A stretch of 46,741 bases of DNA, from positions 1 to 46,741 of the forward strand of contig JBMNPL010000004.1 of NCBI GenBank assembly GCA_050943575.1, in the 5' to 3' direction. Below, piece after piece: positions 2 through 11,453 of this stretch. This DNA is from Alphaproteobacteria bacterium. Its GTDB lineage: Bacteria; Pseudomonadota; Alphaproteobacteria; Rs-D84. The position numbers and the translations under genes are program-made. The stretch's first letter is position 1, and every line of letters starts with the position of its first letter. Below the pieces are notes generated by a model that worked only from the letters and a program-made list of their open reading frames with translations, ran no database searches and was not told the DNA's origin.

Positions 2-1645
2 TATTGCAAAGAGTTTTTTAATGGGTATAATATCCGCGAATTTTGGGGCATCATCTAATTGGTAGGATACCGGATTCTGATTCCGTTCATGTTGGTTCGA
101 GTCCAGCTGCCCCAACCAAGATGTACGACCGTTCGAATTTTTAAGTAAATCGAACGGTTTTTTCAAGGAAATCCAAGCTTTTTTATCAACGATGGTCGAG
201 TTCGAAAGTATCAATTTCAAAAGTGCCCGTTTTTGGTCTGTTTTCGAACTCCGTATTAGATTTCCGGCATTTGCAGCGATTTCGATGATATTTTCAATAA
301 TTTCACCAATTTCATTAAAATCGTCAGAAAATTTGTTTAATTCTGATTCAATTTCGGCTATTTCATTGTCCAATTGATGTTTTTTTGTTTCATATGTTTC
401 TTTGGTTATAACACCGTCTAATAACATATTAACGGCATTATCCAATCGGTTTTTTGCATCTCTCAATCGTTTTTGCAATTCCTGTTTATGCATACGATTA
501 AAACCATTTTCGTTTTGGATATATTCACGAATACTTGATTTTAATGCATTTAATGCTTTGTCTGAAAAATGAAAAGAACCTACCAATTCGTCTTCAATCT
601 GTTGAAACACCAATTGTTCGTTTATGGGCTTTTGGTCGCAATTACCATGTGTATGACTGCATTTTAAATAAGAATATTGTTTGCCGCTTTTCTTTGTGTG
701 TAATTCTGGTGTCATTGTGCAACCACATTTGCCACAGCGAAATAACCCACGTAAAGCAAAATCCATACTACCGTATTCTGTTTTGGTATGTATAGTTGCT
801 TTTCCTGATAACTGTTCTTGAACCTTGTTGAATAAATCTTCATCAATTAAAGGTTCGTATATATGTTTTATATAATTACCTTTGATGTACATAATCCCAC
901 AATAAAACGGGTTTTGTAAAATTGCGTGTATTGCAGCACGACATAATGTTTTATTTGAAAATTTGGATTTTAAATTATGTGTTCTTGCCCAAACTACCAT
1001 ATCTTTTAACGAATATAGTCCAGTTGCATATTCTTCAAACATTTTCTTAACCAATGGTCCGCGTTCGTCATCTATAACAACCGTTTTTTTCTTGTTTTTT
1101 GTAATATTTAAATATCCGGTTGGGGCTTTATTTTGCAGAATTCCCTCCTTCCAGTTATATTCCATACTTCTTTTAACATTGTCTCTTAGTGCATCAACAT
1201 ACATTTTTGCTGCTAATATTCCCATATTCCAACGGGTAATATCTGATGCTGGACTATTTTTAGTCAAAACAAGAGAATCTTTCCAAAAATGCACTTCAAT
1301 TATATCTGCTTTCAACAACGCTTCTATTTCGGCTGATTCTTTAAAACTTCGTTGAAACCTGTCAACACAATATACAACTATCGCTGTTTTGTTTTTTTGT
1401 TTTTTTACAAATTCTAACATTTTATGAAATTCTTTTCTGCTACCGCGTGTTGAACTTTCGGTCAATTTAATTTCTTGAATTACTGTGAAATCATGACTAT
1501 TGCAATATTCTTTTATCTTTTTTATCTGTGCGTCCAAAGAAACGCCTTCAGATTGATGCTCTTTGGATACCCTAGCGAACGCTATGGCCTGTTTGCATGG
1601 TCTTAATTTGTTAAAATTAACTTCTGTATTTTGATTTATCAACAT
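2..1645 (-). CDS. Large serine recombinase/integrase, at least 548 aa, no stop codon inside the window
   Basis: Translated by hand from ATG 1645, open to the window edge. Catalytic FARVS..Q, DRFQRS, APTGY and ILQNPFYCG recombinase motifs, zinc ribbon LRGLFRCGKCG...YLKC...C, C-terminal coiled coil. Confidence 0.93.
   Translation of the reverse strand, partial: MLINQNTEVNFNKLRPCKQAIAFARVSKEHQSEGVSLDAQIKKIKEYCNSHDFTVIQEIKLTESSTRGSRKEFHKMLEFVKKQKNKTAIVVYCVDRFQRSFKESAEIEALLKADIIEVHFWKDSLVLTKNSPASDITRWNMGILAAKMYVDALRDNVKRSMEYNWKEGILQNKAPTGYLNITKNKKKTVVIDDERGPLVKKMFEEYATGLYSLKDMVVWARTHNLKSKFSNKTLCRAAIHAILQNPFYCGIMYIKGNYIKHIYEPLIDEDLFNKVQEQLSGKATIHTKTEYGSMDFALRGLFRCGKCGCTMTPELHTKKSGKQYSYLKCSHTHGNCDQKPINEQLVFQQIEDELVGSFHFSDKALNALKSSIREYIQNENGFNRMHKQELQKRLRDAKNRLDNAVNMLLDGVITKETYETKKHQLDNEIAEIESELNKFSDDFNEIGEIIENIIEIAANAGNLIRSSKTDQKRALLKLILSNSTIVDKKAWISLKKPFDLLKNSNGRTSWLGQLDSNQHERNQNPVSYQLDDAPKFADIIPIKKLFAI
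4..31 (+). promoter_or_regulatory. sigma70-type promoter of tRNA-Gln
   Basis: TTGCAA (4-9), 16-bp spacer, TATAAT (26-31), 12 nt upstream of the tRNA. Confidence 0.75.
44..118 (+). tRNA. tRNA-Gln(CTG)
   Basis: Acceptor stem TGGGGCA/TGCCCCA with U1-A72, anticodon loop TT-CTG-AT, T arm GTTGG-TTCGAGT-CCAGC, encoded CCA. Confidence 0.95.
128..163 (+). terminator. Intrinsic terminator after tRNA-Gln, lying inside the antisense recombinase ORF
   Basis: ACCGTTCGA (128-136) / TCGAACGGT (150-158) stem followed by a T run. Confidence 0.7.
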
Positions 1646-1656
1646 GGTTTGGTCTC

Positions 1657-1851
1657 TTATTTATTTGATTTTAGCGTGTTTGTTTGGTTTTGTACGCGTT
1701 TATTTTCACTTTTTGCTTCGTATATATACAGTGTACCTGTTGCAAAGAATTTAATTAAATCACGAACCGCATTGTTTAACTCTTCGTCTGTAAAAGCATA
1801 ATCAGGATACCAAGATACAATTTCCTGCTTTAACACATCAACATTTGACAT
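1657..1851 (-). CDS. Small protein (64 aa) directly upstream of the integrase; possible directionality or regulatory factor
   Basis: ORF ends 11 bp before the integrase ATG on the same strand; function inferred from position only. Confidence 0.65.
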   Translation of the reverse strand: MSNVDVLKQEIVSWYPDYAFTDEELNNAVRDLIKFFATGTLYIYEAKSENKRVQNQTNTLKSNK

Positions 1852-2060
1852 TTTTTAACATCTTTTTTGTTTCATACTGACATCACAACCGTGTCAGAGA
1901 TGTTATATAGAATTTGGACCGAAAATTTTTCTCACGAACTAAACTTCCAATTCGGACAGCTATTTTCCAATTCTTATAAAAAAATATAAAAATTGTGGTT
2001 TGACCGACTGGGCATACCACAAATTACCAATCCTTGTGGCTTTGTATTTTTTTATTTAAT

Positions 2061-2585
2061 TCATCCAGAATATAAATTCCAAAGATATTCAAAACGAATT
2101 ATATATTCCTTAGCTAGACTATCAAGAAAAACACAGTTTTCACTATTGCTTTTGGTGGCAGCATCGGTCCAATTATATGAACCAGTTACGATGTTAGAGC
2201 CATCAAACACAGCGAATTTGTTGTGTTCTATTTTATATTTTTTATTTTTACGTAAAGGAACACCCGAGTGGACTAGAACATCATCCATAGAATGTTTGTT
2301 TCCTGCCATGGTTCTGTCTGTAATTATACGAATTTTTGCACCGCGTTTTTGGGCTTTTAATAATGCTTCAACAATCTTTTTATTAGTAATGGAGTAAACT
2401 GCAACATCAATAGTTTGAGCCTCACTGATTTTCTCCACAATACGATTTTCACATTCAACCCCTGGTGTAAAATAAACCTCATTACTATATACTACATGAT
2501 TTTGTTCGGACGATTTTGACTTGCCTGTATAATAACCAACAATAAAAGCGGAAATAATAATAAAAAATAAGGCTGTGTTTTTCAT
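2061..2585 (-). CDS. Phospholipase D-family nuclease (Nuc/Zucchini-like, single HKD) with N-terminal TM/signal
   Basis: HNKFAVFD (HxKxxxxD) plus GSYNWT and NSEN motifs; hydrophobic N-terminus. Confidence 0.9.
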   Translation of the reverse strand: MKNTALFFIIISAFIVGYYTGKSKSSEQNHVVYSNEVYFTPGVECENRIVEKISEAQTIDVAVYSITNKKIVEALLKAQKRGAKIRIITDRTMAGNKHSMDDVLVHSGVPLRKNKKYKIEHNKFAVFDGSNIVTGSYNWTDAATKSNSENCVFLDSLAKEYIIRFEYLWNLYSG

Positions 2586-2650
2586 AATTTATATGCAAAA
2601 ATTCTATCAGAAATAAAATCACCCAAAAAAATCTTTGACATTACCTTTTA

Positions 2651-2947
2651 TTATTTACCGTTTGTTTTCATATTGGCTATAAAATAAAACAAAGTTGCAA
2701 TGTTTAATATTGTCCACACTCCACGAACTAAACTAACAGTGAAAATGGGATTGTAGAGTATAGCAATAAGACAAAGTCCTACCGGTAAAGAAGATGACTT
2801 ATTGTATGATGTTAATATCTGCCATAAACAAACACCAAAAATAACCACCCTTAATAGCATATAATAACCGTATGGCATTATCGGCAAAATAGCCAAACCC
2901 AACATAATAGAGCAAATAACATACCAAGTATTTTTATCCATGTTCAC
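2651..2947 (-). CDS. Small integral membrane protein, DUF6804-like
   Basis: About 4 hydrophobic segments; MPYGYY.LLR and ILYNPI...L.R..W pattern recalled for DUF6804. Confidence 0.75.
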   Translation of the reverse strand: MNMDKNTWYVICSIMLGLAILPIMPYGYYMLLRVVIFGVCLWQILTSYNKSSSLPVGLCLIAILYNPIFTVSLVRGVWTILNIATLFYFIANMKTNGK

Positions 2948-2956
2948 CCCCTAAAA

Positions 2957-4720
2957 TTATTCAGCAAATGCCGCTATAAGCAAAAATAACCATATCCACC
3001 AAGTAGCAATAAAGAAATTCAATATCTTAGTTCCAACATTAAACATTGGCATTGAATGTTCTTGTATCTGTTCTGGGAACTCTACTTTTTTAGCCGCTTT
3101 TGCTTCTTCTTTTGTCACACCAAAGGTCTGACTTATTGAGCTACTTGGTCCTTTTTCCATAAACAAGTTCAACAATATGTACATCACAATTGCATTCTCA
3201 ACCAACATCAAAGACCATTCTAACTTATATCTTGGAGAGCTTTTTGAGCTAATAATAACCTTACCATCACTGGCCTTTACTGAAATGTCGGACCATTTGA
3301 ATTTCTTATAATCGTAATAATAATCATCCCTTAATTTCATACCATCATCATACAGAACACCATACACCGATTTTCCAAGTGCCAACTGATTTAACATATT
3401 TGTTATAATTTGCGGACCAACAGCTTTCCACAAGGCCGCGGTAAATCTATTGTATGGTAAAGTTTGTGTATAAATACTGCCTTTCAACCATTTTATTTCT
3501 ACGTCTTCGCTTTCAGTTCCAAAACCAACCAAAGACACTATCCCACCGGAATCACCTTTAAGGCCATATCGTATATTTGTAATATCTTCTAATTTATACA
3601 ACGAACCATTATATTCAATGCCTTTCTTTGACATTGAAAGAGTTTCCTGCCCAAATGCACCATCATGTGTAAAACTACATTCAATCTCTTTTTCTTGGCG
3701 TACCTTTGCCTCCCTAATATCCTTAATAGCAATTAAATCTTCTGACAAATGTTCTGATGATGTGCTTACCTCTGCAAACAATTCTTTTGCTTTTTTGACT
3801 ATTTTTTCTGAAAGGTCTAACGCATTGGCTTTTGCCCCAACATGTATAGCCAACTTACGAACTTCTTCGGCCATATCATGGCTTATCTCGTGTTCTAAAC
3901 CACGATTTTGCATACTAACCTGCAAAGGTTGCATTATGTTGTCGTAATCTTCCAACTCTTCTAAAAAGTCATCTATCAACTTTGTCAAATACGATTTTGA
4001 CACATTTTTGCGAACAGATTCTTTTTTTATGTTTTCAATAGATGTTTTGATTTTTCCGTTTATGCTTTCCAAGTCTTTTTGAACCGCCATTGCATAAATT
4101 TTATCAATATAATCTTGAACCAACTCTAATGTTAAACCGCTTTTTTCTTCTCGTTTCAAGACACCCATCATAATGTGGTTAAGAGATGTAAGCGTACGTC
4201 CAGACACCATTTCTTGAATAGATTGAATCGCCTGAACACGAATATTTTCCATTTCTTCTGCAATAGTAGATGTATCGGAAATTTCAGAAAAGCCGGAAAT
4301 ACTGCGTTCTTCGTTTATTACTTTTAATAAGTTCTCTATGTTTATAGACTCATACGATTGCGCCATTTCAAACAAAGTTTTTTCAAGAGCCGTATCACTT
4401 GGTTTTCTCATACTACTTAACAGCATACCCAAAGACAAATTAAAACGCACTAGCGGCGGCAATTTAGCCACAAACTCATCTTCCAACACACCAAATTTCA
4501 ATTTACTCAATATAGTAGATGTGTCTTTCAAACTTACCCCTGGAAACCACGACAATTCGGCCGATAAACGCCGTCTAGGATTCGTTAAAACCATACGAGC
4601 CTCAGAACAAATGCTTTCATCTATTTCAAGGCTTTTTTCTTCAGCCAAAGACATAAGTTTTTGGCGATTATCTCTAAGAGTAGCACCTAAAATATAAAAC
4701 GGGTTTTCTTTAATTTTCAT
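2957..4720 (-). CDS. 587-aa membrane-anchored protein with degenerate J-domain-like N-terminus
   Basis: NPFYILG...LTNPRRRL resembles J-domain helices but lacks HPD; helical middle, beta-rich C-terminal region, C-terminal TM helix; overlaps the AAA gene by 11 bp. Confidence 0.75.
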   Translation of the reverse strand: MKIKENPFYILGATLRDNRQKLMSLAEEKSLEIDESICSEARMVLTNPRRRLSAELSWFPGVSLKDTSTILSKLKFGVLEDEFVAKLPPLVRFNLSLGMLLSSMRKPSDTALEKTLFEMAQSYESINIENLLKVINEERSISGFSEISDTSTIAEEMENIRVQAIQSIQEMVSGRTLTSLNHIMMGVLKREEKSGLTLELVQDYIDKIYAMAVQKDLESINGKIKTSIENIKKESVRKNVSKSYLTKLIDDFLEELEDYDNIMQPLQVSMQNRGLEHEISHDMAEEVRKLAIHVGAKANALDLSEKIVKKAKELFAEVSTSSEHLSEDLIAIKDIREAKVRQEKEIECSFTHDGAFGQETLSMSKKGIEYNGSLYKLEDITNIRYGLKGDSGGIVSLVGFGTESEDVEIKWLKGSIYTQTLPYNRFTAALWKAVGPQIITNMLNQLALGKSVYGVLYDDGMKLRDDYYYDYKKFKWSDISVKASDGKVIISSKSSPRYKLEWSLMLVENAIVMYILLNLFMEKGPSSSISQTFGVTKEEAKAAKKVEFPEQIQEHSMPMFNVGTKILNFFIATWWIWLFLLIAAFAE

Positions 4721-6125
4721 TGTTAAATCCTATGCGTCTTTTGGGTTTGTCGGTAGCCGATTTTAAGGCTTTTGCTTCAAGAGCGTCATCAATCTCTTGT
4801 TGTGATATTTTATCCTTGCCACGAAAAGCAGTTAAACGAGCAGCCTCTTTAACAACGAATGCGACATCAGACCGTGGCTTATCAGTTAATGCCTCAATCA
4901 CTTTATCTAAATTCAAATTATCATCTTTGGGTAATTTAGCCAAAGATGTATCCAACATACTTTTTATATCTTCTGCTGTCGGCATTTTGACTTCAATCTT
5001 ATGGTCAAAACGGCCGGTACGAAGAATTGCTGGGTCTATATTGTCAATCAAATTTGTCATGCCAACTACTAAAACTTTATTTTTGGGTGCTTCTGGTATT
5101 AAACGCAGAAACTCACCAATTTCTTCAACTTTGAAATCCTGCGCTCCATCTCGTTTCGAAAGATAGGCCTCCATTTCATCTATAATCACGATTGATGGTG
5201 AAGTATCAAAAGCCTTATTAAATACCTCGGCAATCTTTTGTCCTGTTTGATGAATATAAGGACTTCCAATACTGCTCGAATTTATGCTGTACACTGGCCA
5301 ATCTAAAAATTCTGCCAATTTTTCAACTGCATAAGTCTTACCTGTTCCAGGTTTTCCGTACAAAATAATCGGGGACGGAAATCCAATTCCCAAACTTTCA
5401 TATCGTTCTGAATTTTGAACAATATCGATAACATTTTCATAGAAAAAGTTTTCAAGATATGTCGCCCCAGGCAAAGAAAATTTACTTGGTTTTGTATGAG
5501 CTGTTTTTCTTGGTTCATAATCATCAAGAAAAGCGCCATCAGAATCCAGTTGACCATCTAAAATCTTCTGTTCAATACCGGCCGCCTCAATAATTTCTTC
5601 TAAATCCTGTTTAGAAAAATTGGCTGTTAAACTTTTTAATCTGCGAATAGATGTTGTTGGAACAGCGACACCGCCAGTTAACCAAGTTCCCAACAACATA
5701 CTATCATCAACATCACCACCAGACAATTCATTTACCGGCAATAAACGAGCATATTGCTCAACATAGATAGCATTATCTAATGGAAGATTTTTAACAATAT
5801 TTCTGGTTTCTTTCAAACTTTTTGCAAATGCAAGAGCAGAAACCTTATCTACCTCAAAAAACTTATAACTTAATGGTGCCAATAGGAAACGGTCTGAAGA
5901 CAATAAGCAACTAAAATTATCGCCTCCAAAATCGCACTTAAAAAACACCTCTGGATTCAATAACCCTTGGTCCACCCATTTATCAACTAATGGTTGACGA
6001 CTTACCAACAAATTTTTATTGTTGTTTGTTTTATAAATTTGCCATGTATCATTTGAAAAGATTAAATTCTTAATCTCTACATCTTGTGCAATTTTATATT
6101 CTTTTGGCAACCAAGGGTCTATCAT
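4710..6125 (-). CDS. AAA+ ATPase (classic clade) with uncharacterised N-terminal domain
   Basis: Walker A GKPGTGKT, Walker B IIDE, SRH TN..DNIDPAILRTGRFD, C-terminal RRIGF. Confidence 0.92.
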   Translation of the reverse strand: MIDPWLPKEYKIAQDVEIKNLIFSNDTWQIYKTNNNKNLLVSRQPLVDKWVDQGLLNPEVFFKCDFGGDNFSCLLSSDRFLLAPLSYKFFEVDKVSALAFAKSLKETRNIVKNLPLDNAIYVEQYARLLPVNELSGGDVDDSMLLGTWLTGGVAVPTTSIRRLKSLTANFSKQDLEEIIEAAGIEQKILDGQLDSDGAFLDDYEPRKTAHTKPSKFSLPGATYLENFFYENVIDIVQNSERYESLGIGFPSPIILYGKPGTGKTYAVEKLAEFLDWPVYSINSSSIGSPYIHQTGQKIAEVFNKAFDTSPSIVIIDEMEAYLSKRDGAQDFKVEEIGEFLRLIPEAPKNKVLVVGMTNLIDNIDPAILRTGRFDHKIEVKMPTAEDIKSMLDTSLAKLPKDDNLNLDKVIEALTDKPRSDVAFVVKEAARLTAFRGKDKISQQEIDDALEAKALKSATDKPKRRIGFNNEN

Positions 6126-6128
6126 ATC

Positions 6129-8621
6129 TTATCCTCTTACAATATTTGTGATACTCATATCATCAAAGCTTACACCACCACTAATGCACGACATTTCCAG
6201 CTCTGCAACAATTTGTCTCAAGCGGTCAATGTTATCGTGTTCCATGGCATTATTACCGGCGGCAACCAAACTATTGAACTTTTCTCTATCAGATACAGAT
6301 TGTGGACGAGTTGCTAGATTCTTAAAGCGAGCAACAATAAACCAATCCTGTTTCCACAAAATACCAAATATCTTGATACGAATTTCTTTGATATATTCTT
6401 CAAAAGCATTTGTATCTTTTTCGATTGTTCGTTTTGCGCTTGTAATAAGGTTGTCTATTGTGCTGACTTCAGTAGTACTTGCGGCCTTACGCAACGGTTC
6501 AAAGAATTCGATAACCTTATCCAATTCCATTTGACGGATTGTTTTTAAGTGTTTCTTACGAACTTTTGCAAGTTCTTTCTTTGCTTGCTGGACTTGCTGT
6601 TCTGCAACTTTTGCTTTTTCAGGGTCTTTTTCATCAGCAGACAAAGATGCTGCACTATTTAATTTTGAGATAGCATCATCTAAATCTGGGTCATCTATCT
6701 TTTCTGCCATATCATCTGCGCGCTCACGAGTTGATTCAGCTTCTGCTAAAATTTCGCTGGCCGCCTCTGTATAATCTTTTTGTCCATCTTGTCTAGAATA
6801 AAAATTCTTAGCCGAATTAAATGAACCACGAATACAAGGGATAGAAACTTCTAACTTAATATTTCCATCATCAGACATCTCATAAATACATTCTATATCC
6901 GAACCAGCAGGAATAACCCCATCATCAAAGTCTGTACCGGAAATCTTGAAACTACCAATATACTCATTATCATCTATCGGATTTACAATATCGCCTTGCC
7001 ACAACTTAAAGTTTAACGATGCCATATCACCGGCTTTCAATGTTTCGGCGGCTTTCAATTTAATAGAGCCACGTTTAGGCAATATATCACCGGCCTTAAC
7101 CAAATATTCTGGCACAGGTGTTCCGCCCAATTTATCCAATACCCCCAAGAATACAGTATGCGATGCTGGAATAGAATCAATTGTTGCGGCGGTTTTTACG
7201 ATAACAATTTTATTTGTTTCTAATGGAACAATATCGCCAACACCATTAAATACAAATACTTTAAATGTGTTTTCGCCATTTTTAGACAACAATACATCTA
7301 CTGGAGTTTTTTCTGAAAGTGCTATTTTACCAGACGACCAACCTGTATCTAATGAATCAATCTGGAATTCATAATTATCCTTGTTAGCCGTATCTAATGT
7401 GACAACCAACTTAGTCTTTGAATCTGGTGTGCGTGCTATGTAATCAAATTTTACATTAACTGCACCTTTTGATTCAATAGAACCACGAACATTCTTTTTT
7501 GCATGGGCTTGTGATGACCAATCAATGGATTCAGCATAAATACTTGCACCCTCTGAAACTGCTGTCATAGGATTAACATCTGTATTTGCAGGTATGCCTA
7601 ACTCAGAAGAAACTTTATCGCGTAATGGTTTGTAGTTAGTTGGTCCACCGACAAACACAATACGAACAACATCTTCTGTTTTCAAACCGGCCGAATCCAA
7701 AGTATCCAAAACAGATTTAATAGTATCTTGAATCTGATTTTCAATCAAAGGATTATACATATCACGATTGATTTCTATATCTAAATACATATCTTCGCCG
7801 GTGTCATCTTGGGCGCGTAAGTATGATTCAGAAGCAGAAATAGTCGCACTATGCCTATCTGATAATGCAATTTTTGCCTTTTCTGTTGCATAGTTGATAA
7901 CTCCTATCATAGATTTATATTTATCAAGAGTCCAAAATTCATCCGGCAACTTAAATCTATTTTTCATCCAAGGATAAACCACTTTTTCAATTAAAACTCG
8001 GTCAAAATCACGCCCCCCACAAGCAGGTATCCCACCATGGCTCATTAAACTTACACGACCATTTATACTTTCTGCAACAGCAACGTCTAATGTACCACCA
8101 CCCAAGTCATAAACCAAGAAAATGCCATCTTCTGGACGAGTTTTCATAATACTCATAACTGCTGCAACAGGTTCTTGCATAAGGGCAACTTTACCAATGC
8201 CTGCCATATTAGCGGCAGCCAACGTAGCGTCTTTTGCTTTTTGGTCAAATGCCGCAGGAACAGTAATAACCGTACCCAAATCTGGGTCATTTCTGATTTC
8301 ATCTGGCAAGTAATTAAACATTGTCTTCAGGATTTCGGCCGAGCATTCTTCTGGAGACAAATCTTTGCCTAAATTAGGGATTTTTACCATAGTGCTTGTA
8401 CCCATCATTCGCTTAAAACGAACTGCTACATTTTCTGGGTCTCTGGCCATTTCCTCATAAGCATCATTTCCAACATACTTATTACCTCGCGCATCTACCA
8501 AAATTGCAGATGGAGTAACATCATAACCACGAGAATTTTTCCAAATTTTTACATTTTCACCATCATACGAAGAAATCGCACTATTGGTTGTACCTAAGTC
8601 AATACCTATAAAGTTTGTCAT
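6129..8621 (-). CDS. Atypical Hsp70-family protein (830 aa), not housekeeping DnaK
   Basis: GIDLGTTNS, VITVPA.F, EPVAA, YDLGGGTLD, GG.DFD and EKAKI.LS ATPase motifs; C-terminal half unlike the DnaK substrate-binding domain. Confidence 0.92.
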   Translation of the reverse strand: MTNFIGIDLGTTNSAISSYDGENVKIWKNSRGYDVTPSAILVDARGNKYVGNDAYEEMARDPENVAVRFKRMMGTSTMVKIPNLGKDLSPEECSAEILKTMFNYLPDEIRNDPDLGTVITVPAAFDQKAKDATLAAANMAGIGKVALMQEPVAAVMSIMKTRPEDGIFLVYDLGGGTLDVAVAESINGRVSLMSHGGIPACGGRDFDRVLIEKVVYPWMKNRFKLPDEFWTLDKYKSMIGVINYATEKAKIALSDRHSATISASESYLRAQDDTGEDMYLDIEINRDMYNPLIENQIQDTIKSVLDTLDSAGLKTEDVVRIVFVGGPTNYKPLRDKVSSELGIPANTDVNPMTAVSEGASIYAESIDWSSQAHAKKNVRGSIESKGAVNVKFDYIARTPDSKTKLVVTLDTANKDNYEFQIDSLDTGWSSGKIALSEKTPVDVLLSKNGENTFKVFVFNGVGDIVPLETNKIVIVKTAATIDSIPASHTVFLGVLDKLGGTPVPEYLVKAGDILPKRGSIKLKAAETLKAGDMASLNFKLWQGDIVNPIDDNEYIGSFKISGTDFDDGVIPAGSDIECIYEMSDDGNIKLEVSIPCIRGSFNSAKNFYSRQDGQKDYTEAASEILAEAESTRERADDMAEKIDDPDLDDAISKLNSAASLSADEKDPEKAKVAEQQVQQAKKELAKVRKKHLKTIRQMELDKVIEFFEPLRKAASTTEVSTIDNLITSAKRTIEKDTNAFEEYIKEIRIKIFGILWKQDWFIVARFKNLATRPQSVSDREKFNSLVAAGNNAMEHDNIDRLRQIVAELEMSCISGGVSFDDMSITNIVRG

Positions 8622-8627
8622 TCTGCT

Positions 8628-9197
8628 TTACCTTTTGTGTTTTTTATGCTTGTTCTTTTTTTTATCATTTTGATTATTCTGATTGTTTTGACTGTTCTCT
8701 GGGATATCGCCTAAACTAACGGTTTCCGAACTAGAAAAATCAATATCTACAAATTTAATTGTCGGCTCTATAATTTCGGCCTCTGTTTCAACAATATTAC
8801 AATCTTGATTGTCTGAAACAGGTTCAATTTCGGGTTCAATAATTTCTACTACTGGCTCTGGAGCTTTCGTTGATTTCAACAACACAACACCAGACTTTAC
8901 AACCTTGCCTTGGAACATGACAATAGGTTCTATAACTTGGTCAATTAACAATTCTTCATCTTTATCAAAATCAGACAAATTTAATGGGGTGGCGGCAACA
9001 CCAACATCATACACACCCTCTGGAACAACAAAAGAATAACCAGATTTATTTACAAAATCTTGACACTTTTTCACAAACCAATTTACTTGACCTAAATATC
9101 GTTTTTGTTCATCTGGGGATAAATGGTTTATTAACTTTTGAAAAAGTTTTGGCACATTATACAATTCTAAAATAAAATCTAAATTTTGCTCATCCAT
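8628..9197 (-). CDS. GrpE-like protein with low-complexity acidic/basic tail
   Basis: Helical N-part, then YD.G...I.QVIEPIVMFQGKVVKSGVVLL resembling the GrpE beta domain; ends 6 bp before hsp70; GGAG RBS. Confidence 0.65.
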   Translation of the reverse strand: MDEQNLDFILELYNVPKLFQKLINHLSPDEQKRYLGQVNWFVKKCQDFVNKSGYSFVVPEGVYDVGVAATPLNLSDFDKDEELLIDQVIEPIVMFQGKVVKSGVVLLKSTKAPEPVVEIIEPEIEPVSDNQDCNIVETEAEIIEPTIKFVDIDFSSSETVSLGDIPENSQNNQNNQNDKKKNKHKKHKR

Positions 9198-9213
9198 AAT
9201 AATACTCCAATGA

Positions 9214-9624
9214 CTAATTTTTATTCTTAAAAAAATCTTCCAACATAAACCTTAATTTAGCTAATTCACATGAATAACTTGAATGCATAGCATTTAAAAA
9301 TATAGCCATTTGTTTTGCAATACTATTTTTTTGCGTTTCTGATAAAGATAAATATGTTTGTCTATCAAATTCTTTACCGGATATAATTTTTTCTTTAATT
9401 ATATGTTTATCATTTAATTTTTTAATCTCTATTAATTCTGGTAACAATACACCTGTATTGTTATTGTGTGATTTGATAAAGTCAATTATTTCATAACCAC
9501 GACTTTGTCTACGAATATAATCAGAGTTTTTTTCAGGATTATTTTGTTCTTTTATAACAATGCCAGGTTCTGTATCATCAATAAAAACAACTGAATGAGC
9601 ACCTTTATTCAAAAAAATACGCAT
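9214..9624 (-). pseudogene. Truncated aminoglycoside-phosphotransferase/kinase-like gene (N-lobe only)
   Basis: G.HS.VF, VIK, LPEL, I.G and IAKQMAIFLNAMH match the APH N-terminal half; the catalytic HxD and DFG-like motifs are absent. Confidence 0.55.
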
Positions 9625-9829
9625 ATAATTCCCTTTTTGGTAATTATATCATACAGGTATTAGAAGAGTAATATTTTATTTTGTTTAAATCCGAAACCCT
9701 ATTAATCTATACATTCCATCTCATCAATTTTTTATTTAATTTCAATTAACTTAGCTTACGAACCACGCATGCTGGACATAAACAAATTTTTATATTAATA
9801 TAAAAAAGATTTTTAAATAGGTAATATAA

Positions 9830-9929
9830 AAAATAATTTAGTAATTTAATACTTTTCTTTATACTTGAAGTTATAATTTTTTATAATCTTTAAACTTATA
9901 TCAAGGAGAATGTATATATGGAGATAAAA
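9830..9929 (+). repeat. Promoter/RBS cassette, copy 1
   Basis: Near-identical to 11352-11453; includes TATAAT boxes, AAGGAG and the first codons. Confidence 0.85.
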
Positions 9930-10952: not shown

Positions 10953-11124
10953 GTCTTACCCCTTTTGTTAAAATTTTAACATATTTTCATATCCATTTTA
11001 TATTATACGAGTATTTTATCATATTTATTATATTATCAAAATTATATAATTTGGCGATTGATTAAAGTTTTAATAAACGTTTATAATTGTTAAATGATAT
11101 AAAAAGGGTTAGGGTGTTTTTTAA

Positions 11125-11358
11125 ATGAGTAATATAAAAAACAATATTCAAATATGTGGTTATCATGGGTGTAATGTTATCCCAGATAATAATGGATGTG
11201 AATGCACAAAATGCAATCCTTGTACAAATAGCTGTAAATCATGTGATGAACCACAAAAACGTGCTGATGAACAATTATTATTGGGAATATATGATTTTGA
11301 AATTCTAAAATGTAAAGAATGCATGTTACGATTTTCAAATGCTTATAAATCAAAATAA
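11125..11358 (+). CDS. Cys-rich small protein (10 Cys in 77 aa), putative metal-binding
   Basis: CxC and CxxC clusters, no signal peptide. Confidence 0.6.
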   Translation: MSNIKNNIQICGYHGCNVIPDNNGCECTKCNPCTNSCKSCDEPQKRADEQLLLGIYDFEILKCKECMLRFSNAYKSK

Positions 11359-11453
11359 TTAGTAATCTAATACTTTCTTTATACTTGCAGTTATAATTTT
11401 TTTAATTATAATCTTTAAACTTAATATCAAGGAGAATATATATGAAAATAAAA
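11352..11453 (+). repeat. Promoter/RBS cassette, copy 2
   Basis: TTGCAG (11385), 16 bp, TATAAT (11407), AAGGAG; near-identical to 9830-9929. Confidence 0.85.

Follow-up and report, generated by a model that had tools for sequence, protein, structure and literature searches.

A widespread, mobile Hsp70-based gene cassette with a GrpE-like gene, a AAA+ ATPase, an unnamed adaptor family and tagged membrane proteins

Escherichia coli HscC and its partners DjlB and DjlC form a specialised, non-essential Hsp70 system in which DjlC carries a C-terminal membrane anchor. In the sections of a review that deal with these proteins, DjlC is described as having a real J-domain and as stimulating HscC, HscCs are 550–580 amino acids (aa) long and thought to be GrpE-independent, and the bacterial Hsp70s named are only DnaK, HscA and HscC (Mayer 2021, PMC8215388). 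Parts of a survey of predicted conflict systems describe loci with an extra HSP70, a GrpE and a DnaJ-fused partner, centred on GAP1-N2 or DO-type GTPases and tubulin or FNIII-repeat proteins and found mainly in actinobacteria and firmicutes (Kaur et al. 2020, PMC7159879). In the part of a further report that concerns type III CoCoNuT systems, the CnuD proteins of predicted defence operons have Hsp70-like nucleotide-binding (NBD) and substrate-binding (SBD) domains with degenerate ATPase motifs, and accompany McrB-type GTPases and HEPN RNases (PMC11090510). Here we describe a locus in contig JBMNPL010000004.1 of an alphaproteobacterium of the lineage Rs-D84 (assembly GCA_050943575.1, positions 1 to 46,741); this whole stretch of 46,741 nucleotides (nt) is referred to as the window. 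The locus is a copy of a widespread, unnamed and mobile Hsp70-based cassette with a client-like tag, in which an Hsp70 is encoded together with a GrpE-like protein, a AAA+ ATPase and a member of an unnamed adaptor family.

The window carries six minus-strand genes, lettered A to F in transcription order (Table 1; all coordinates are those of the whole window), with intergenic spacings of 6, 3, −11, 9 and 65 nt. A first-pass annotation, made from the sequence alone, had reported six co-oriented genes with these gaps beside an integrase at a tRNA; the gaps were reproduced exactly, and the coordinates, the strands, the serine recombinase and the tRNA-Gln are as claimed. Its description of a self-contained, tightly coupled chaperone module on mobile DNA is likewise upheld by the gaps, by the conservation of gene order and by the mobility of the locus. 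The conserved cassette itself consists of four genes, A, B, C and D. A single-sequence scan of genome contigs with B gave no match, and an alignment-based scan, with one genome per species, then gave 361 stretches with a B relative, 80 of which were fetched. Over these 80 loci, tblastn detected relatives of A in 74, of C in 68, of D in 58, of E in 5 and of F in 1, the misses among the core genes being due to short contigs. In all 42 loci that we count as complete, those with an entire B followed by at least 7.5 kb of sequence, C and D lie downstream of B, which bears out the proposed module on the gene order of its homologs. Upstream of B, A was found by tblastn in 72 of the 78 loci with at least 400 nt of upstream sequence, and in the remaining 6 the upstream open reading frame (ORF) clusters with the A family by blastp. 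The A-B-C-D order is far beyond chance.

B is 50–65% identical throughout relatives from many phyla, including Pseudomonadota, Bacteroidota, Desulfobacterota, Acidobacteriota, Verrucomicrobiota, Planctomycetota, Nitrospirota and Campylobacterota. A search with D in genomes sampled from the window's own phylum found it in 4 of 401, and the three D-bearing genomes other than the window's all have A-B-C-D in the same order and lack E and F; identity to the window is there about 50% for B, 42% for C, 40% for A (residues 1–94) and 29% for D. Within the window's genus, B is present in two of eight genomes, in copies that are only 64% identical to each other. The cassette is thus accessory and sporadic. 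Longer forms of the cassette also encode a 214-aa protein, lipoprotein-like proteins, a membrane protein of the RDD family and a small protein with two helices. As the first-pass annotation had supposed, it is not a named system: PADLOC v2.0.0, NCBIfam release 20 and Pfam gave no system-level match for A, B, D or E, with 0 PADLOC-DB families for A, D and E, and no description of the cassette was found in the literature library searched, which did not cover supplements.

Clustering of the ORFs of the 80 loci revealed a previously unnoticed fifth component, a family of tagged bitopic proteins. These single-pass membrane proteins (a main cluster of 61 ORFs and three small sister clusters) are encoded between C and D or just after D; 38 loci have an insert between C and D and 17 do not. 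Each begins with an N-terminal tag of approximately K-G-F-[SA]-G-L-S-x-L-V-S-D, whose G-F, G-L and S positions are 95–100% conserved in 66 sequences, followed by a proline/alanine-rich linker, one hydrophobic helix near residues 75–80 and a variable C-terminal part. Among 26 proteins scanned, 14 carry PG_binding_1 and 2 an SLT lytic transglycosylase domain, and the RefSeq label for the family is 'peptidoglycan-binding domain-containing protein'. At least one tagged protein is present in 39 of the 42 complete loci (one in 23, two in 15 and three in 1). The tag is predicted to be cytoplasmic and the C-terminal part periplasmic, often binding or cutting peptidoglycan, and the tag is likely to be a client or docking peptide. 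The clade of the window (the window, loci L008, L083 and L086, and the congeneric genome G403) has no tagged proteins, and D has its own transmembrane helix instead; a six-frame search of the window's whole genome for a tagged protein gave 0 regular-expression matches and a best HMM match at E 2.

Gene B encodes an Hsp70 with an intact ATPase domain, as first annotated: in addition to the PF00012 match, the nucleotide-binding residues D8, K70, E150, D172 and T177 are invariant in 27 B sequences, and the NBD matches that of DnaK (2v7y) at E 1.5e-47. In the predicted fold, the ATPase domain (residues 1–365) is followed by an extra beta domain (about 378–476), an SBD-beta-like domain (about 490–603) and a long helical region (about 621–829). 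B falls far below the NCBIfam equivalog cut-offs for DnaK (199.7 against 648 bits) and HscA (185.2 against 708.55 bits), and its only PADLOC match is a chance-level one to Cas8b (E 0.0063). Beyond residue 366, Pfam and PDB-profile searches gave no sequence match, and an Atlas look-up of the C-terminal half returned only 'Hsp70 family' clusters. In an AlphaFold2 (AF2) model of B (mean predicted confidence, pLDDT, 77; pTM 0.45), VIA-align placed 435 residues within model residues 1–595 on the full-length Hsp70 Ssz1 (5mb9_B) with Z 37.3 and a root-mean-square deviation of 4.2 Å; Z was also about 37 against Hsp70 NBDs. The model superposes on DnaK to about residue 608 with a different domain arrangement. 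Since the model superposes on Ssz1 and DnaK, we read the C-terminal half as a divergent Hsp70 substrate-binding region with an inserted domain, and not as a foreign module; this is a prediction from the modelled fold. The annotated 'non-DnaK C-terminal half' therefore stands at the level of sequence matches past residue 366, whereas the predicted fold keeps an SBD-beta-like domain.

An Aminobacter plasmid (locus L139) and Sinorhizobium plasmids (hits H5–H12) carry a more distant Hsp70, about 840 aa long. It is 32–33% identical to B over 95–97% of the length and lies behind a 117-aa gene and an 841-aa hypothetical gene, in a neighbourhood with an integrase, AAA ATPases, a helicase and a RES toxin. 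These genes may represent a second, three-gene branch of the same superfamily.

Window A has no Pfam match. Within an alignment of 28 members of its family, weak matches to GrpE (PF01025) occur in 12, making GrpE the commonest family found; the best of them has E 0.002 and lies below the gathering score. When the A family was compared with 15 GrpE proteins of relatives by hhalign, the two aligned with a probability of 80% (E 1.4e-5, 105 columns), the aligned columns of A spanning the GrpE helical bundle and beta domain. Members of the A family consist of helices followed by a small beta domain; most are about 125 aa long and lack the long N-terminal GrpE helix. In the window's clade A has an additional clade-specific tail, first acidic and then lysine-rich. 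A profile search with A against PDB sequences gave nothing meaningful. These comparisons support A residues 1 to about 110 being a remote, shortened GrpE-like domain, in agreement with the 'GrpE-like' label first given to the gene, and A is likely the nucleotide-exchange factor for B.

C is a classical-clade, single-ring AAA+ protein. Its Walker A, Walker B, arginine-finger and pore-loop regions are conserved in 59 C sequences, whereas its N-terminal domain of about 230 aa is family-specific and less conserved. The nearest named models, PAN, Cdc48, FtsH and IetA, reflect the generic AAA core at scores far below their cut-offs, the best PADLOC match being IetA (E 5.7e-29, residues 230–453). C is presumed to be a hexameric unfoldase or extractor.

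D belongs to a large family, for which a 50%-identity library contains 2810 representatives at E ≤ 0.001 (1220 of them at E ≤ 1e-30); among the matches listed, none has a name or a Pfam domain. In its AF2 model (pLDDT 89), four short helices at the N-terminus are followed by a long helical scaffold and by two modules, each a beta-sandwich plus a helix; these modules (residues 348–447 and 460–523) resemble PH/GRAM domains at Z 8–9, a hint at the level of the predicted fold. A wide VIA search with the model gave, beyond these PH-like matches, only generic helical ones; Foldseek against the PDB found nothing at E ≤ 0.001, and a D profile gave only chance-level matches to PDB sequences. An Atlas look-up returned unnamed clusters, with DUF6585 as a structural lead for residues 353–524 below the tool's bar. 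The C-terminal transmembrane anchor annotated for D was confirmed; 11 of 31 aligned members have it, and it is peculiar to the window's clade.

The first-pass annotation had called D a 'J-like' protein without HPD. The absence of HPD was confirmed and extends to all 31 aligned D sequences, and the J-like label is not supported: the N-terminus is J-domain-like by eye only, a look-alike pattern that the profile comparisons given below do not bear out. In the window's own genome, a family search found only two other J-proteins. The proposed pairing of the Hsp70 with D was examined by predicting a complex of B residues 1–620 with D residues 1–120 alongside three controls. The median score was 0.42, as against 0.00 for the best control, with at least 90% contact agreement between runs and a partner pLDDT of at least 74; of solved complexes, 116 of 157 reach the mark for this score, and of mismatches 2 of 215, but scores of 0.60 or less, as here, are weak.

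Long forms of D (at least 640 aa) occur in L020, L024, L029 and 15 other loci. In these, the usual N-terminal domain is preceded by about 130 extra aa that include a zinc-ribbon-like motif (C-x2-C...C-x2-C) and a conserved helical segment.

E and F are not part of the conserved core. E, with three hydrophobic segments, has relatives in 5 of the 80 loci and is an accessory of a cassette subset: its family, DUF6804, directly follows D in four of the five anchored-D copies and in one other locus, the gene standing in this position in L008, L081, L083 and L086, and was not found in the congeneric copy G403. Its membership, which the annotation had left uncertain, thus holds for this subset only. 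F has an H-x-K-x4-D (HKD) motif, read in the translation, and an N-terminal hydrophobic signal or anchor. It matches NucT models at E 1e-16 (61.2 bits, below the 211-bit cut-off) and, weakly, DrmC-type PADLOC models at E 4.7e-11. A relative of F occurs in 1 of the 80 loci, about 3 kb past D, and F is co-travelling cargo, not a conserved member.

The mobility of the locus is seen directly in other metagenomes. Contigs from four runs in four studies match approximately positions 1852–9264 at 95–99% identity or more, with flanks unlike those of the window; X2 shows both ends, at 1852 (left) and 9264 (right), X4 the left end and X13 the right end, and one 9,099-nt contig covers 1852–9107. A to F travel as one block in the window's lineage. 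F is present here because the genes move together, and functional membership does not follow from it. On two plasmids the cassette is cargo behind TnsABCDE of a Tn7-like element, and a Vibrio plasmid has its copy close to an integrase and a toxin-antitoxin pair. A tyrosine integrase cluster is found in nine loci, and serine recombinases adjoin three copies, those of the window, of G403 and of L008, the recombinases of the latter two being distant.

L008 is a metagenome-assembled genome of Muribaculaceae (Bacteroidota, gut) with the combination of anchored D and DUF6804, and its B is 65% identical to that of the window. Its likeness to the window and G403 points to cross-phylum exchange within gut communities.

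PADLOC was run on 227 of the 363 non-redundant neighbour ORFs of at least 200 aa in 57 loci (L008–L064). Known defence genes lie within 10 kb of the cassette in 15 of the 57 loci by strong matches and in 23 when weak ones are counted, without a matched control. The neighbours include type I restriction-modification (R-M), Hachiman, Azaca, AbiE, SoFic, Hhe/PDC-S37, HEC-05/06, PDC-S28, PDC-S02 and RecD-like genes. In L010, L012 and L018 the cassette is flanked upstream by a type I R-M system and downstream by a complete Hachiman pair (HamA and HamB), as in a textbook defence island.

Table 1. Features of the window around the cassette, in coordinates of the whole 46,741-nt stretch
Feature	Position	Strand	Description
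A	8628-9197	-	189 aa; no Pfam family; probable remote GrpE relative, small partner
B	6129-8621	-	830 aa; Hsp70 NBD PF00012, residues 5-364, E 1.2e-57
C	4710-6125	-	471 aa; AAA PF00004, residues 253-380, E 2.3e-29
D	2957-4720	-	587 aa; no Pfam, NCBIfam or PADLOC family; unnamed adaptor
E	2651-2947	-	98 aa; DUF6804 PF20619, E 2e-17; small membrane protein
F	2061-2585	-	174 aa; PLDc_2, E 2.3e-24; single-HKD protein of the phospholipase D (PLD) family, Nuc/NucT type
Mobile block with F, E, D, C, B and A	1852-9264		recurs in other metagenomes
Large serine recombinase ORF	2-1645	-	Resolvase, Recombinase and Zn_ribbon_recom domains
64-aa ORF	1657-1851	-	between serine recombinase and mobile block
tRNA-Gln	44-118	+	ARAGORN

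The serine recombinase and the 64-aa ORF (2–1851) are likely the mobility module of the island. The recombinase frame has no stop before window base 1 and runs antisense across the predicted tRNA-Gln gene; a repeat search showed no evident direct repeats that might mark attachment sites. At the other side, the right end of the block near 9264 falls inside a 136-aa ORF (9214–9624, minus strand) that resembles APH(2'')-type kinase models over their N-terminal third only (E 2.5e-6), which fits an insertion cutting an aminoglycoside-kinase-like gene. Further on, three adjacent direct repeats of 28–29 nt, 83–97% alike, stand at 9796–9917 and again at 11118–11443 in a very AT-rich stretch (GC 25–30%), before a GNAT gene (9918) and a 412-aa gene (11442), and look like a duplicated promoter or leader region. 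The genome of the window (G000) is about 0.85 Mb in size and 95% complete, and 20 sampled relatives of the same order have 0.6–1.1 Mb; this reduced-genome gut lineage still retains a 7.4-kb accessory chaperone block.

When set beside the DnaK-DnaJ-GrpE/ClpB machinery, the cassette shares an Hsp70 with an intact ATPase and a predicted SBD-beta-like domain, a probably GrpE-related partner and a AAA+ protein alongside. However, B is 830 aa long, with an extra beta domain, a long helical tail and no recognisable DnaK linker; A is short and lacks the long N-terminal helix of GrpE; and a true J-domain is missing. As a classical AAA+ protein C has a single ring, whereas ClpB has two, and the cassette is accessory and mobile while the host encodes its own GrpE and DnaJ elsewhere in the genome. 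HscC with DjlB/DjlC is alike in combining a specialised, non-essential Hsp70 with a partner that has a C-terminal membrane anchor. In contrast to DjlC, D has neither HPD nor a J-profile match, and B is a protein of 830 aa accompanied by a GrpE-like gene and a AAA+ gene.

Several described conflict and defence systems were considered and rejected. The GTPase-centred systems of Kaur et al. do not fit, the cassette having no GTPase core and, instead, a AAA+ protein and tagged peptidoglycan-binding proteins: the conserved neighbour clusters of the 80 loci comprise only A, B, C, D, the tagged membrane proteins and small envelope proteins, and no GTPase gene is among them, GTPase families not having been searched by name. 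CnuD of CoCoNuT differs in that the ATPase residues of B are invariant and McrBC neighbours are absent. For IetAS (Gao_Iet), IetA scored 91.8 against a 510-bit cut-off and the IetS protease partner is absent from the operon. For DISARM, F is only a weak DrmC-type match, and the eight window proteins scanned include no DrmA, DrmB or methyltransferase. Zorya (ZorAB) has a membrane component with a peptidoglycan-binding periplasmic domain, linked to cytoplasmic machinery and built as a MotAB-type channel. The cassette resembles it as a functional analogy only, in that a peptidoglycan-binding membrane partner would be coupled to cytoplasmic machinery on mobile or defence DNA; it lacks a MotAB-type channel, its partners cross the membrane once and bear a cytoplasmic tag, and its motors are Hsp70 and AAA+. 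The Zorya models in PADLOC did not match the core.

The gene content and order of the cassette, its conservation, its domain assignments and its mobility are observed. We consider its best explanation to be a mobile, self-sufficient Hsp70/AAA+ machine at the membrane with an accessory, conflict-type role in defence or envelope surveillance, and give this reading a probability of about 0.5. The binding partners and the biological role are what we infer. D would be the adaptor that brings the machine to the cytoplasmic membrane, on its inner face, and would there recruit B to the membrane partner; the membrane link is a tagged protein or, in the window's clade, D's own helix, and the tag of the bitopic proteins would be the client or docking peptide. 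A would reset B through nucleotide exchange, and C would pull, unfold or extract what B holds. By this route, cytoplasmic ATP use could be coupled to the state of an envelope-anchored, often peptidoglycan-bound protein. Judged from distribution and carriage, the most likely role is anti-phage or other anti-invader defence, or envelope surveillance, because the cassette is patchily distributed, has been transferred across phyla, is carried by transposons and islets and keeps company with defence genes. A housekeeping role is unlikely, and a defence function taken by itself is plausible at roughly even odds.

A number of results weigh against this reading. The core has no conserved nuclease, protease, NADase or other recognised toxic effector, which is unusual for defence; this weakens the defence interpretation and keeps rivals based on stress tolerance or on the mobile element alive. 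The peptidoglycan-binding partners, and the RDD protein and lipoprotein-like genes of the longer versions, fit envelope maintenance equally well. Since it has no matched control, the count of 15 defence-associated loci out of 57 is suggestive only, and 34 of the 57 loci had no defence gene among the neighbour ORFs scanned. A search of 50,697 phage records found no full-length B relative. A J-domain relationship of D, which would tie it to B, is not supported by profiles: Pfam DnaJ (PF00226) matched none of 31 members at E ≤ 10, and hhalign against 10 J-domains of relatives gave probabilities of 0.6–4%; the predicted complex of B with D is, as said, weak. At the locus itself, promoter and terminator scans did not exceed expectation from shuffled sequence (44 promoters against 36.1 ± 6.6 and 6 terminators against 4.0 ± 2.3), and no RNA run was found to contain the stretch.

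A bolder form of the conflict-type role is a new immune or conflict class with a private Hsp70 cycle as its core, in place of a nuclease or a nucleotide signal. The bitopic proteins would then report the state of the peptidoglycan or incoming particles while their tag is held by the Hsp70 and the adaptor, and on infection the AAA+ protein and the Hsp70 would remodel or release membrane proteins, blocking entry or collapsing the envelope; in the window variant, the target would be the anchored D together with its DUF6804 partner. We regard this form as tentative and, on balance, doubtful. A rival is a mobile stress-tolerance or proteostasis module, which would shield wall and membrane under stress by extracting, refolding or inserting proteins anchored in the envelope. 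Transmissible heat-resistance islands, which carry extra chaperones and AAA+ disaggregases, are comparable in spirit. Such a module would account for core enzymes that are all chaperone-type ATPases with no conserved toxic effector, for partners with peptidoglycan-binding or lytic transglycosylase domains, RDD and lipoprotein-like proteins, for a substrate-binding fold that B is predicted to keep, and for the 34 of 57 loci without a known defence gene nearby. However, the conserved tag points to a few dedicated clients and not to general proteostasis, the host has its own GrpE and DnaJ, and the patchiness (4 of 401 and 2 of 8 genomes) and the R-M, Hachiman, Azaca and Abi neighbours fit conflict genes better. 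We consider a stress-tolerance module unlikely.

The two other explanations that we weighed appear distinctly improbable. The cassette could serve the mobile element itself, through local envelope remodelling for its entry, exit or establishment, or through entry exclusion. Lytic transglycosylase domains are usual in DNA-transfer machines, an SLT domain is present in 2 of 26 partners, and copies are cargo of Tn7-like transposons on plasmids and of recombinase-borne islets. Most copies, however, are chromosomal, transfer genes are not among the conserved neighbours, SLT is rare among the partners, and Tn7-like movement needs no envelope remodelling. The other is the original proposal, a six-gene system whose chaperone machine would sense a signal and act through the PLD nuclease as the effector under its control. 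All six genes are co-oriented and lie in the block at 1852–9264, which is nearly identical in other metagenomes; the HKD motif of the PLD is intact, and PLD nucleases occur in known systems, as the DrmC-type matches to F recall. Against it stand the single relative of the PLD, distant from D, among 80 loci, and a cassette that is complete without the PLD in 42 of 42 loci. The gene is also set apart by a 65-nt spacer, and its product starts with a signal or anchor like that of periplasmic Nuc/NucT, which would place the PLD across the membrane from the ATPases. Since its relative occurs in only 1 of 80 loci, the claim that the machine 'controls an effector' is left without family-wide support.

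On the bolder reading of an immune class with a private Hsp70 cycle, no earlier defence system would have been driven by an Hsp70 chaperone machine, and a function in defence or entry exclusion would make it a mechanistic class without a nuclease or second messenger, in which chaperone action is linked to envelope sensing. Since a client, a targeting factor and an exchange factor would be encoded side by side, it is also an attractive small orthogonal Hsp70 system for mechanistic work. As cargo of Tn7-like elements and of recombinase islets in bacteria of gut, soil and water, the cassette is traded across phyla. It adds to DnaK, HscA and HscC a fourth, widespread type of bacterial Hsp70, one that is mobile, 830 aa long and accompanied by a probable exchange factor, a AAA+ protein, an unnamed adaptor family and tagged, peptidoglycan-binding candidate clients. 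The cassette belongs with the specialised Hsp70 systems, and there is a substantial chance that it represents a new class of conflict system.

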